Below are positions 4,897 to 35,479 of a stretch of 64,000 nt of DNA, piece after piece. Source of the DNA: Candidatus Poribacteria bacterium (GTDB lineage: Bacteria > Poribacteria > WGA-4E > PCPOR2b); the NCBI GenBank assembly GCA_965116925.1, contig OZ220744.1:3872001-3936000 (forward strand). The letters run 5' to 3'. Made by a program: the position numbers and the translations under genes. How positions within the stretch are numbered: position 1 is the first letter of the stretch; each line of letters opens with the position of its first letter. The notes under the pieces are model-generated. The model was not told where the DNA came from. It saw only the letters and a list, made by a program, of their open reading frames with translations, and did not search any database.

Positions 4897-5823
4897 ATGT
4901 TACGGACAAAAGTATCTTTAATCCTGATAACGCTCCTTGCTATTGGAGTCATTTGGAGCTTACCCTCAACTGTTGACGCACGTGATGTCACTGTCCTAGT
5001 GTTTAACAACACACCCGAATCGTGGGGTGTTTGGGGCCCGCCTGCCCGAGATCCCGCTGCGTTCGATGGTGGAAAAATTAAAACCGCACTTCAAGGCACG
5101 TGGTACGATGCCATCTTCAAGCAGTTCGGCTTTACAGAGGGCAAAGACTTTCTGGAGATCATTGGCGACGATGTCGCAAGGTTTGAAAGGGAACTCTGGA
5201 GCGACAAGTGGGATGTTGTTGTTTTCAATTACCACATCTGGCGAGATAGCCCTGACCTGCAGGCGTGGATTGAGCAAAATGGCAACAAACTGAAGGAGTT
5301 CATGGACGAAGGTCATGGCGTCATCAGCACCGGCGGTCGGGATCCCGAAGATAGACCGTTGGTAGCCCTTTGGGACGGTATGGACAAGGCGTTGGCTGGG
5401 TTCCCCGTGGCGGACAAATGCTGTCTCGCGTACGTTGAGGGCACACCGTTGACCAAAGATATGGTGGGCGGCATTATTGATACGTCTAAATCCCCGGATC
5501 CGACCTTCGTGGGTGACGGCGATTTCCCCGGCTATGATAGGGGTCTATTGCCCGGGCACGCTGAAGTGGCAGCCGAAGATATTGGTGATCCCAATATTGC
5601 CATTATCGTCTATGGACGAGTTCAAAGAGGGGCTTATGTCCTGAGTGGCAGCGCCGAAATTACCAATATGAACATGGGTTTCGGTCAGAAGGAGCTCGGT
5701 CAAGGCAATTCATGGCTCCTCTGGCGGAACATGATCGATTGGTTTGAAGATGCGAACCTTCGCTCGGTGAATCCGAAGTCACAGCTACCCATGACTTGGG
5801 CACAAATTAAGACCGGTCGATAA
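4897..5823 (+). CDS. Secreted hypothetical protein with C-terminal W[GA]xIK motif
   Basis: Signal peptide ending STVDA; C-terminus SVNPKSQLPMTWAQIKTGR; GGAGG RBS upstream. Confidence 0.8.
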   Translation: MLRTKVSLILITLLAIGVIWSLPSTVDARDVTVLVFNNTPESWGVWGPPARDPAAFDGGKIKTALQGTWYDAIFKQFGFTEGKDFLEIIGDDVARFERELWSDKWDVVVFNYHIWRDSPDLQAWIEQNGNKLKEFMDEGHGVISTGGRDPEDRPLVALWDGMDKALAGFPVADKCCLAYVEGTPLTKDMVGGIIDTSKSPDPTFVGDGDFPGYDRGLLPGHAEVAAEDIGDPNIAIIVYGRVQRGAYVLSGSAEITNMNMGFGQKELGQGNSWLLWRNMIDWFEDANLRSVNPKSQLPMTWAQIKTGR

Positions 5824-5840
5824 ACAATAACCCAATACTT

Positions 5841-5866
5841 GGGGGCAAGTGTGACTTGCCCCCTTT
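5841..5866 (+). terminator. Putative intrinsic terminator
   Basis: GGGGGCAAGT-GTG-ACTTGCCCCC hairpin followed by TTT just after the 5823 stop. Confidence 0.6.
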
Positions 5867-5923
5867 CCGCAATTTTCATAAAAATTAAAGGAGGATAGAT
5901 AAGGATATTAGGGAGGGAATATT

Positions 5924-6793
5924 ATGTTTCGCACGATCTTATTATTTTTAATTGGCATCTCGTTAATCTGCCAGTTTCTACCAATAGGTGTGGATGCCAA
6001 AGTCCTTGGTTACTGGACCTTTGACGACCAAAAGAAGCTCGGGCAGGATTTGTCACACTTCGGAAATGATGGGGAATTGAAGGCAGGGGCTTGGACACGG
6101 CAAGGAAAGGTCGGCGGTGCGTTGAACCTAACAGGTGGCGGGGACCAAGCACCACACTACTTTGAGGTGCCTCATGACAATAGCCTAAATGTCAAAGACC
6201 AAGTGACCTTGATGTGTTGGATCAGTTTTAGCGGTCCCGCAGAAGAACAGAGTTTAATCTATAAAAATGGTCCCTTTATATTAGAAGGCGACAAGAAAGA
6301 TCGGACGTTTTGGTCATCTTATGGATTGGTTAAGTGGCGTGATAGGTGTGCATGTGGTACTTTTGGATTCGATGCGAACACAGAAGGCGGCCGATCGGCT
6401 GTGTTGCCCGGGGATCCGTTGATTCCCGAACCAAATGATTGGCACCATGTTGCGGCAGTAGCAGACGGCACTGAAATTAAAATCTACCGAGATGGCAAAG
6501 AGAGGGCAAAAGGTGCCCAACGCGGACCGTTTAGAAATTCCGAGCAGTCTTTGACAATTGGTTACGATCACCGCGTTCCGGTGGACCGGGTCGGCGGTGC
6601 GAGACGTCACCTGCGGGGCACCATAGATGAAGTGATGGTTCTCGATCAGGCACTGACCCCGGCTCAGGTTCAAGAGGCGTTTAATCTCGGTGAAAGAGGG
6701 AAGTCCCTCACCGAGATGGTGGAGATTTTTTCGGTCGAAACCGAAGGCAAATTAGCCACGCAGTGGGGCGCGATTAAATCGACAAGACAGTAA
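5924..6793 (+). CDS. Secreted LamG/concanavalin-A-like jelly-roll protein 1
   Basis: GYWTFD...GKVGGAL...WHHVAAV...IDEV pattern typical of LamG-like domains; C-terminal KLATQWGAIK. Confidence 0.88.
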   Translation: MFRTILLFLIGISLICQFLPIGVDAKVLGYWTFDDQKKLGQDLSHFGNDGELKAGAWTRQGKVGGALNLTGGGDQAPHYFEVPHDNSLNVKDQVTLMCWISFSGPAEEQSLIYKNGPFILEGDKKDRTFWSSYGLVKWRDRCACGTFGFDANTEGGRSAVLPGDPLIPEPNDWHHVAAVADGTEIKIYRDGKERAKGAQRGPFRNSEQSLTIGYDHRVPVDRVGGARRHLRGTIDEVMVLDQALTPAQVQEAFNLGERGKSLTEMVEIFSVETEGKLATQWGAIKSTRQ

Positions 6794-33515: not shown

Positions 33516-33550
33516 GTGTCCCGATAGAATCAGGAAAGGAGGAACAGTAA

Positions 33551-34504
33551 ATGGGACGAAGATACAATCTCGTATATTTCATGCGAGCGAGCATTATCCT
33601 CTTAGGTCTGACAACGCTGATGGTAGGGGTTGACGCGCAGGCACAAATTGCCTTTACGTCTGAGAGGATTCACACCGTAGACATCTACGTGATGGAGGCA
33701 GATGGCAGCAATCCTCGACAACTTACCGACGATCGTTGGGCGGACGATTTTCTCTCATGGTCGCCAGACGGTACACGCATCGCCTTCGCCTCCCAAGATA
33801 ACAGAAATTGGGACATCTATGTGATGTCCGTTGATGGCGGGAATCCTCGAAATCTCACTAACAGCCCCCATGGTGAGTGGGAACCTTCATGGTCGCCAGA
33901 CGGTGAACGCATTGCCTTCGCCTCCGATAGGGAGTTGAAGACAGACATCTACGTGATGGACGCCGATGGCAGTGATCCGCAAAACCTTACAAACAATCGC
34001 CATACTGACCGCTATCCTTCATGGTCGCCCGATGGCAAATACATTGCCTTCGCTTCCTATAGGGGTGCCAACTGGGACATCTACGTCATGAACGCCGATG
34101 GCAGCAACCCTCAAAACCTCACAGGCAGCCACCGTGACAACTGGGCACCCTCATGGTCTCCCAACGGTAAACGTATCGCCTTCACCTCTGCACCTAAGGG
34201 AGATGAAATGGAAATCTACGTCATGAACGCCGATGGTAGCAATCCCCAAAACCTCACCAATCATCCCGCAGTTGACAAGTTGCCCTCATGGTCTCCTAAC
34301 GGCAAGCAGATTGCTTTCGTCTCTGATAGGAAGGGCAACTTGGACATCTACATCATGGCTGCCGATGGTAGCAATCCCCAAAACCTCACAAACAGCCCTT
34401 TTCCGGATGAGTCTCATCCTGCGTGGTTTCATTCCGGTTTTGCAGTTGATCCTGCCGGTAAACAATTCACGATGTGGGGGTGGCTCAAGCAGGTCGTCCA
34501 ATAA
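33551..34504 (+). CDS. Secreted TolB-like PD40 beta-propeller protein 2
   Basis: Same repeats; C-terminal KQFTMWGWLK. Confidence 0.9.
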   Translation: MGRRYNLVYFMRASIILLGLTTLMVGVDAQAQIAFTSERIHTVDIYVMEADGSNPRQLTDDRWADDFLSWSPDGTRIAFASQDNRNWDIYVMSVDGGNPRNLTNSPHGEWEPSWSPDGERIAFASDRELKTDIYVMDADGSDPQNLTNNRHTDRYPSWSPDGKYIAFASYRGANWDIYVMNADGSNPQNLTGSHRDNWAPSWSPNGKRIAFTSAPKGDEMEIYVMNADGSNPQNLTNHPAVDKLPSWSPNGKQIAFVSDRKGNLDIYIMAADGSNPQNLTNSPFPDESHPAWFHSGFAVDPAGKQFTMWGWLKQVVQ

Positions 34505-34534
34505 CTAACTTTGAGACAGAAGGAGGCACAGCAG

Positions 34535-35479
34535 ATGAAACGGAGATACAGTCTCGCACATTTCATTTTAGTCAGCGTTATAGCCTTGGGGCTGGCATCG
34601 CTGGCGGTAGGTGTCAACGCACAGGCACAGATTGCCTTTACGTCTGATAGGGATGGGAACGAGGACATCTACATAATGGACACCGATGGAAAGAATCAGC
34701 GAAAACTCACCAATCATCCCGAAGATGAGGACGATCCCTCATGGTCACCGGACGGCAAACAGATTGCCTTCGAGAGGGACTGGGACATCTACGTGATGGA
34801 CACCGATGGTGGGAATCAATTGAACCTCACAAACAATCCGGCGGAGGATTTTCACACTTCATGGTCTCCTGGTGGCAAACGCATTGCCTTCGTGTCTGAT
34901 AGAGATGGGAACAGTGAAATCTACGTGATGGACACCGATGGGCAGAATCCTCAAAGACTCACAGATAATCCTGCGGTTGACCATTCTCCCTCTTGGTCTC
35001 CTGACGGCAAACGCATTGCCTTCGTGTCTGATAGGGATGGGAACGAGGACATCTACGTGATGGACACCGATGGTGGTAATCGTCGAAAACTCACTCAACA
35101 CCGTCGTGGTGATGGGTCACCCTCTTGGTCCCCCGATGGCAAACGCATTGCCTTCGTATCTAATAGAGGGGGTTGGGACATCTTCGTGATGGACGCTGAT
35201 GGACAAAATCCTCGCAACCTCACCAAAGATGGCGATGCCTGGGGCTACTTTGATCCCTCTTGGTCCCCCGACGGCAAACGCATTGCCTTCTCTTACGTCG
35301 GAAGGAATGGCAAGGCGGACATCTATGTGATGGATGCCGATGGACAAAATCCTCGACAACTCACCAACAATCCTTTAGCATTTGATTACGAACCTGCTTG
35401 GTATCGACCTGTGTTTGCAGTCGCACCTGTGGGTAAGCAATTCACGATGTGGGGGTGGCTGAAACAGATCGCCCGATAA
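34535..35479 (+). CDS. Secreted TolB-like PD40 beta-propeller protein 3
   Basis: Same repeats; ATG follows AAGGAGG; C-terminal KQFTMWGWLK. Confidence 0.9.
   Translation: MKRRYSLAHFILVSVIALGLASLAVGVNAQAQIAFTSDRDGNEDIYIMDTDGKNQRKLTNHPEDEDDPSWSPDGKQIAFERDWDIYVMDTDGGNQLNLTNNPAEDFHTSWSPGGKRIAFVSDRDGNSEIYVMDTDGQNPQRLTDNPAVDHSPSWSPDGKRIAFVSDRDGNEDIYVMDTDGGNRRKLTQHRRGDGSPSWSPDGKRIAFVSNRGGWDIFVMDADGQNPRNLTKDGDAWGYFDPSWSPDGKRIAFSYVGRNGKADIYVMDADGQNPRQLTNNPLAFDYEPAWYRPVFAVAPVGKQFTMWGWLKQIAR

Follow-up and report, generated by a model that had tools for sequence, protein, structure and literature searches.

The question raised by this locus is why exported proteins of unrelated folds should all end in the same short peptide. 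The window analysed here is a stretch of 64,000 nucleotides (3,872,001–3,936,000) from the single-contig 6.47 Mb genome of a Poribacteria bacterium with 49 % G+C; positions up to 64,000 are those of the window and larger ones those of the genome. Eleven proteins of the window share the tail V-x-P-x-G-K-x2-T-x-W-G-x-[IL]-K followed by 3–4 residues. In Pfam searches seven of the eleven contained Laminin_G_3 (LamG), three contained PD40 and one (4897–5823) matched nothing, and in neither Pfam nor NCBIfam did any model cover the last ~20 residues of the eleven proteins; NCBIfam gave just sub-threshold TolB and TafC similarity, located within the protein bodies. An earlier note made from the sequence had read the tail as a portable C-terminal sorting signal on secreted proteins, and all eleven open reading frames (ORFs) and their endings were found to read as it had transcribed them. 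No description of the tail was found in the literature. We found that the tail is an autonomous, strictly terminal peptide selected at the protein level, carried by exported proteins of many folds throughout the phylum, and that it is the sister of a peptide abutting the C-terminal domain (CTD) of type IX secretion system (T9SS) cargo, from which it differs by one residue class.

To determine the extent of the tail, the six-frame translation of the 6.47 Mb genome was searched with the strict motif P..[KRGSD]....W[GA].[ILVM]K. There were 83 occurrences, 77 of which ended 2–5 residues before a stop. A 19-column profile of the tail reached at least 15 bits at 125 places, 122 of them within 10 residues of a stop. 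Since nearly all matches of both searches sit at stops, chance is excluded, and the portable and strictly C-terminal character proposed in the earlier note was borne out by the profile search of the whole genome. Tail-bearing ORFs were then defined as stop-to-stop ORFs of at least 200 amino acids (aa) ending in W-[GAS]-x-[ILVMF]-K within 14 residues of the stop. This selection returned 120 ORFs, exactly 11 of them in the window, corresponding to about 2 % of the called genes (120/5141) and grouped in 39 arrays of 1–14 genes.

Conservation along the 120 tails was high at positions that the selection did not demand, with V in 113, P in 87, G in 83, K in 103, T in 98, the G next to Trp in 113 and L/I in 105; the Trp and the last Lys were present in 120/120 by construction. 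The last Lys was followed by 3–4 residues in 99 of the 120, these residues being mostly polar or basic and containing no hydrophobic stretch, in agreement with the earlier statement that the tail has no transmembrane helix. The final residue of the protein was most often R (59), Q (20) or K (15). At the conserved residues all synonymous codons were in use, and all three stop codons followed the tail (TAA in 62, TGA in 31 and TAG in 27). This freedom in synonymous codons and stops indicates selection on the peptide, that is, a protein motif, and the possibility of a DNA repeat was ruled out on the same grounds. A signal-like N-terminus was found in 116/120 tail ORFs by a crude test (at least 9 of 12 hydrophobic residues near the N-terminus), and a lipobox-like site in just 3/120.

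With signal and tail stripped, the 120 ORFs fell into 14 BLAST clusters, with sizes of 72, 24, 8, 4 and 3 and nine singletons. The three largest were PD40 (72), LamG (24) and Kelch (8) proteins, and Pfam searches of representatives of the smaller clusters identified CBM9_1, Cohesin+PKD, DUF3108-like and 3-keto-disaccharide hydrolase carriers, several clusters having no family match. The carriers are therefore, as first proposed, secreted proteins of unrelated folds, within the limits of the crude signal test. The extent given at the time, eleven proteins of three folds, described real proteins but not the true scale, which is 120 proteins in 14 clusters and phylum-wide.

The position of the tail relative to the fold was assessed in an AlphaFold 2 (AF2) model of one LamG protein of the window (8756–9628), built from a 27-row alignment with a mean pLDDT of 79.6. 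In this model the LamG domain was confident and residues 269–291, which contain the tail, had pLDDT below 50, so that the tail is not a modelled part of the LamG fold and lies outside its confident domain, in line with the earlier reading. The 27 aligned LamG sequences, some only 24–26 % identical, had 12 invariant columns, of which three (K279, W284 and K288) lay in the tail, making the tail better conserved than the domain. A PD40 paralogue, L014, likewise had a complete propeller upstream of the motif. When only the tail was compared with a protein atlas, the best scores were 0.81, equal to the chance level.

The distribution of the tail among genomes was examined with a stop-anchored DNA pattern, which gave 63–66 matches in the source genome and 0 in three shuffles. 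The pattern was present in 121/121 sampled Poribacteria genomes with 1–68 matches each, and the reversed control over the same genomes gave 0–1 per genome and 3 in all. A Planctomycetota sample gave a single match in each of 2/151 genomes, and no matches were found in four single genomes of other phyla. A GC-rich version of the pattern, applied to one genome for each of 185,579 species, returned 43 loci, of which 19 were true tails with a stop 1–4 codons after the Lys and the remaining 24 were internal coincidences. True tails came from Poribacteria-labelled records and one unlabelled record belonging to the phylum sample (G104), and also from two metagenome-assembled genomes (MAGs), one labelled Verrucomicrobiales and one Dehalococcoidia, where mis-binning is possible. 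In these two MAGs (L045/L067) the stop lay 2–3 codons after the Lys with 1–3 copies each, and in the Dehalococcoidia-labelled MAG two LamG genes, ~27–31 % identical to those of the source genome, stood in tandem on a contig of 2 kb. These occurrences could reflect either mis-binning or real spread. Homologue searches limited to two tails recovered close orthologues only (28 and 12 proteins) and were uninformative on the cross-phylum range.

The few internal matches of the tail profile led to proteins with a tail-like peptide ~100 residues before the stop, and these proved to be linked to T9SS cargo. The genome encodes 62 ORFs with a T9SS type-A CTD, having [FYW]PNPF[NS] exactly 89 residues before the stop in the NPFNPETW...K form, and CTDs of this type were recognised by Pfam and NCBIfam models. 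In 9–13 of the 62 (13 by eye, 9 by a DNA pattern and 6 by a strict regular expression), 'LLQNYPNPF' was directly preceded by the motif V-x-P-x-x-K-x2-T-T-[LFW]-G-x-[IV]-[KR]-x-T-x, hereafter the TWG-like motif; the others had a helical or another module in that position. A tandem array of five PD40 paralogues, 60–83 % identical, contained both arrangements, three with a CTD (475–481 aa) and two without (388 and 391 aa). The CTD-less paralogues end in ...TTLGAVKRSALSKD at the stop, aligned to ...TTLGNIKRTSLMQNF directly before PNPFNPETW... in the CTD-bearing paralogues. Given that the sister motif abuts the CTD, tail-only proteins stop where the CTD would start. An AF2 model of a PD40 paralogue with the TWG-like motif and a CTD, based on a five-row alignment, had pLDDT below 50 over residues 364–475.

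The earlier note had held that the tail matches no known system. This stands in so far as no Pfam or NCBIfam model covers it, but its independence from known systems does not, as the sister motif abuts the T9SS type-A CTD. In Bacteroidota CTDs, a cleavage-site motif is located 6–30 residues upstream of motif B, and cleavage yields a C-terminus that becomes glycan-linked (PMC11969387). From this position, the ends of tail-only proteins coincide roughly with the expected mature ends of T9SS cargo. The helical pre-CTD module preceded a CTD in 23 cases and in no case closed a real ORF. Since only the TWG module occurs free of a CTD, the tails are not mere debris of CTD loss.

The CTD-linked form with Leu or Phe in place of Trp is an addition of the present analysis, and its relation to the tail was quantified in 24 Poribacteria genomes of 8 families, in which relatives are not independent. 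The stop-anchored pattern gave 701 matches to the terminal form with Trp. The terminal form with Leu/Phe gave 16, near the background of 6 in reversed controls, and at least 6 of the 16 were out-of-frame TGA codons inside CTD genes. Conversely, the CTD-linked form carried Trp in 2 cases and Leu/Phe in 91, the latter in 10/24 genomes and mostly in two families; all CTDs in the 24 genomes numbered 1102. Trp thus accompanies a free end, Leu/Phe a following CTD, and the contrast is near-absolute. That the Trp tag and the CTD are almost mutually exclusive is as expected of alternative signals. Furthermore, the terminal Trp form occurs throughout the phylum and the CTD-linked form is lineage-restricted, which argues that the tail is not simply a by-product of CTD loss.

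These observations led us to favour, tentatively and with less than even confidence, a reading in which the tail is an alternative to the CTD, namely a short linear docking peptide recognised either by a PorV-family carrier or by some other component of a reduced T9SS-like outer-membrane apparatus, with the protein ending at the surface. The tail would serve as a recognition peptide in place of the type-A CTD; its reader, by analogy with type-B CTDs, may be a PorV-family carrier or a different T9SS part; and tail proteins would be brought to the cell surface or kept there. The reading is favoured because of the type-B analogy, because the genome has six paralogous barrels, because tail and CTD exclude each other, and because of the extracellular nature of the carried domains and the cohesin protein that bears a tail. 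With a cohesin on a tail protein and dockerins on CTD cargo, the partners should meet in one compartment. A bolder form of the proposal, which we consider doubtful, is that the tail represents a third type IX-type signal class, a linear peptide of 19 residues with one decisive Trp that replaces a folded 90-residue domain and is served by its own PorV-family carrier and a motor-less translocon. If true, it would be the smallest known tag to take a folded protein to the surface of a Gram-negative cell and hold it there, and the main display route for the 'eukaryote-like' binding proteins of sponge symbionts.

The genome was searched for the secretion machinery that such a reading requires. Two PorU-type sortases were found, at 5736947–5743243 (2098 aa, 422 bits) and 2902402–2908656 (2084 aa, 428 bits), both above the cut-off of 420 and roughly two times as long as the family model. 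A DUF3108+transglutaminase gene precedes the first, and the second has a PorV2-like barrel gene and then a DUF4159 gene behind it. Of six barrels of the PorV/PorQ family, five exceeded the family cut-off of 90 bits; one of the six follows a 2096-aa CTD protein and another a 997-aa ORF whose end is weakly PorZ-like. A SprA-like ORF of 2172 aa scored 141.5 bits, under the cut-off of 200, and the PorP family gave one weak match of 29.5 bits. The components that define a genome with type-A CTDs, the Sov/SprA translocon, the PorV carrier and the PorU sortase, were therefore all represented, the translocon by this ORF below its cut-off. Kamke et al. 2014 (PMC3909097) recorded TIGR04183 domains in Poribacteria but found no Por or secretion genes in single-cell genomes.

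Several points weigh against the favoured reading. No gene consistently adjoins the 39 tail arrays, and no carrier gene stands beside the tail genes. Tail and CTD numbers are decoupled among genomes, with 46 CTDs and 1 tail match in G013 and 8 CTDs and 18 tail matches in G006. PorV-family genes were present in 24/24 genomes tested, leaving no contrast of presence and absence; as tails, CTDs and PorV genes occur in every genome, profiling within the phylum cannot discriminate. Searches for GldL, GldM and GldN, run without a positive-control genome, gave no match in the genome, and GldK matches were FGE-like only, at no more than 116 bits. The lack of GldL/M/N matches means that the known energy chain for cargo release may be missing. 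Moreover, the known T9SS carrier binds a folded CTD through motifs B, D and E, which the tail lacks, and PD40/TolB-like proteins are classically periplasmic. The earlier proposal of an uncharacterised machinery thus found no counterpart, with no gene consistently linked to the tail arrays and no contrast for profiling in the phylum.

The immediate neighbours of the 39 arrays were large paralogous metabolic families (GFO/IDH/MocA, PhyH and enolase-like), at or near baseline. Two other families showed mild enrichment and are regarded as leads, not partners. Of the 28 copies of the DUF6785+DUF6784 membrane family (~650 aa), 8 lay within 5 kb of tail genes compared with 8.9 % for all genes; several stand directly beside arrays, such as 6329968–6331890 on the minus strand, and none is in the window. 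The SBP_bac_5 solute-binding family (~530 aa, six copies, 46–72 % identical) had 4/6 copies no more than 5 kb from PD40 tail arrays (2592572–2594194, 4030451–4032157, 1896941–1898533 and 4672079–4673683), one of them inside a 14-gene array. Paralogues of the FGE/sulfatase-modifying-enzyme fold occurred at 31 places, scoring up to 116 bits on the GldK model, and one (3956716–3957594, minus strand) lies 3.4 kb from an 8-gene LamG tail array (3960958–3969043). Two genomes of one genus, G008 and G013, with one tail match each, had no PorV paralogue above 170 bits, and represent a single lineage. A complex prediction for the tail alignment (35 aa) with the most PorV-like barrel (356 aa), made without controls, scored 0.00 and is evidence neither way.

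The main rival, which we regard as unlikely, is a periplasmic retention or anchoring tag independent of the T9SS, acting at the peptidoglycan or the inner face of the outer membrane. It would explain the mutual exclusion of the Trp tail and the CTD equally well, since CTD proteins leave the periplasm, and would require no extra export step. Tail proteins have a Sec-type signal only and no known outer-membrane export signal, the largest carrier class consists of TolB-like PD40 propellers (TIGR02800, 244–269 bits), and the decoupling of tail and CTD numbers, the invariant Lys and Trp and the basic C-terminus (last residue R in 59 and K in 15 of 120) all fit retention. However, LamG, Kelch, CBM9 and cohesin+PKD are typical extracellular binding modules, the presumed dockerin partners of the cohesin are CTD cargo, one paralogue family alternates between CTD and CTD-less forms, and no peptidoglycan-binding family matched the tail. 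Cleavage by a PorU-type sortase is improbable in our judgement; in this case the chain would be cut near the invariant Lys, its last 1–4 residues released and the new end linked covalently to a surface glycan or lipid. The two PorU genes above the NCBIfam cut-off are an unusual duplication, the extension after the Lys is tightly held at 3–4 residues, and the sister motif occupies exactly the site at which T9SS CTDs are cut (PMC11969387). Against this, tail-only proteins have not retained the x-T-x residues found at the putative cleavage site of CTD cargo, PorU works at the cell surface, to which tail proteins have no known route, and the Trp/Leu switch is not predicted.

The remaining explanations are less probable still. 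A tag for degradation or quality control, recognised by a C-terminal processing protease of the periplasm or by a PDZ protein, would account for the strictly C-terminal position and for the low AF2 confidence (pLDDT below 50), but PDZ-type readers bind the extreme C-terminal residues, which in the tail are variable, and the retention of such a tag on ~120 proteins and in 121/121 genomes is hard to rationalise; we consider this very improbable. We give slightly less weight still to a structural role, as the closing strand of each fold or as an oligomerisation strand. The motif does resemble a PD40 blade strand (SPDGK-x-IAF compared with V-x-P-x-GK-x-x-T-x-W) and shows hydrophobic/polar alternation; on the other side, the same tail is found on at least 14 unrelated clusters, it was of low confidence and outside the domain in the LamG model, and the L014 propeller was complete before it. 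An integral fold strand was rejected on the LamG AF2 model. Finally, a functionless remnant of repeated T9SS CTD loss is disfavoured and has a scarcely appreciable probability. Tandem paralogues with and without a CTD do exist, but V, P, G, K and T are kept in 87–113 of 120 tails with synonymous codons, the tail is in 121/121 genomes and the CTD-linked form in just 10/24, and no other pre-CTD module occurs without a CTD.

Within the window, all eleven tail genes are on the plus strand. An exported 308-aa protein without a Pfam family (4897–5823; tail at nucleotides 5767–5820, VNPKSQLPMTWAQIKTGR) is followed by seven LamG genes, namely 5924–6793 (tail 6734–6790), 6845–7753 (tail 7694–7750; start uncertain, TTG 6845 or ATG 6887), 7823–8701 (tail 8645–8698), the AF2-modelled 8756–9631 (tail 9575–9628, inside residues 269–291), 9635–10561 (tail 10505–10558; start uncertain, TTG 9635 or ATG 9689), 10654–11529 (tail 11473–11526) and 11595–12449 (tail 12393–12446, a W-A variant). 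The three PD40 beta-propellers, the first of them TolB-like, are encoded at 32511–33515 (tail 33456–33512), 33551–34504 (tail 34445–34501) and 34511–35479 (tail 35420–35476). Contigs from RNA-labelled public libraries of two studies covered 30/30 bins of 4897–12449 at 95 % identity or more. In one study these were short pieces of uneven depth; in the study with contigs of up to 4.4 kb across genes, the longest record of the run was 123 kb, which suggests DNA in the library. Taken together, this is a weak hint of transcription of the LamG array, with DNA carry-over possible.

Two further proteins of the window carry T9SS C-terminal domains. A 614-aa protein (12890–14734, minus strand), convergent on the LamG array, has a CHU_C/FlgD_ig-type CTD and lacks the TWG motif; its CTD is of a second subtype (...VPNPYRL...GIYVYHIEA...KFAVIR) that differs from the NPFNPETW subtype of the genome's 62 others. 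An LRR-Big_1-dockerin protein (44208–47750, plus strand) is CTD cargo of the NPFNPETW type A with a helical pre-CTD module that is not TWG-like, and its gene is flanked by a DDE transposase gene (41484–42353, minus strand) and a YhgA-like transposase gene (47859–48827, plus strand). Directly upstream of the PD40 trio, a row on the plus strand (28175–30620) consists of an RRXRR-family gene, a 171-aa ORF without a family and an HTTM-domain (gamma-carboxylase-like membrane) gene, none with an evident link to the tail. The remaining genes of the window are housekeeping or metabolic.

Marine sponges count Poribacteria among their dominant symbionts. The way in which these bacteria present their many eukaryote-like binding proteins has been a standing question since 2014. 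The tail points to a defined and testable set of candidate surface proteins, and the natural switch from Trp to Leu/Phe supplies binding assays with a control that already exists. Should the peptide by itself prove sufficient for display, it would make an unusually small portable tag.

Among known systems, the T9SS type-A CTD (TIGR04183/PF18962), which is carried by PorV and removed by PorU, is the closest comparison, both signals being C-terminal and found on Sec-exported proteins of many folds in the same genomes. The CTD is a beta-sandwich of ~89 residues, whereas the tail is 19–23 residues long with pLDDT below 50. TIGR04183 and PF18962 gave no match at the C-termini of the eleven window proteins at E values up to 1, and the sole TIGR04183 row among them was at 14.3 bits (cut-off 23) over residues 40–70 of one PD40 protein. 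Motifs B (PNPF), D (GxY) and E (terminal, basic) are present in the 62 genuine CTDs and none of them in the tail. The type-B CTDs embody the same concept of a second signal class with its own anchoring barrel; they use PorP/SprF-type carrier proteins of their own, which then anchor the cargo (PMC10994853). The source genome correspondingly has its six PorV/PorQ-family paralogues, although the type-B signal is a folded domain, unlike the tail.

The LPXTG/sortase, PEP-CTERM/exosortase, GlyGly-CTERM/rhombosortase and MYXO-CTERM/myxosortase systems likewise mark numerous unrelated exported proteins within one genome by short, portable tags at the C-terminus. Their signals are tripartite, with a motif, a transmembrane helix and a basic cluster (in part from bioRxiv 10.1101/2023.06.07.544157). 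The tail has neither a helix nor such a cluster, and no sortase-family genes were seen near the tail arrays, where no search was aimed at them. In the beta-signal of outer-membrane proteins, an aromatic residue, usually Phe, is the last of the terminal beta-strand; F, Y or W is last in just 7/120 tail proteins. In PDZ and C-terminal protease tags the conserved residues are the last 3–5 of the chain, but here the last 3–4 residues are variable and conservation lies 4–18 residues before the end. Braun-lipoprotein-type attachment joins a C-terminal Lys to peptidoglycan by an L,D-transpeptidase; in the tail proteins Lys is last in only 15/120, although the invariant Lys is 3–4 residues from the end. 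A streptide-like substrate for a Lys-Trp crosslink was also rejected, the tail proteins being exported proteins of 250–370 aa; no search was aimed at radical-SAM genes near the arrays.

The organisation of the carriers also resembles that of the cellulosome. The cohesin+PKD protein bears the tail where a scaffoldin has its cell-surface anchor, and dockerins are found on CTD cargo. The cohesin–dockerin pairing is here presumed from the domains encoded. In the cellulosome the anchor consists of SLH repeats, whereas here the anchor would be a peptide of 19 residues.

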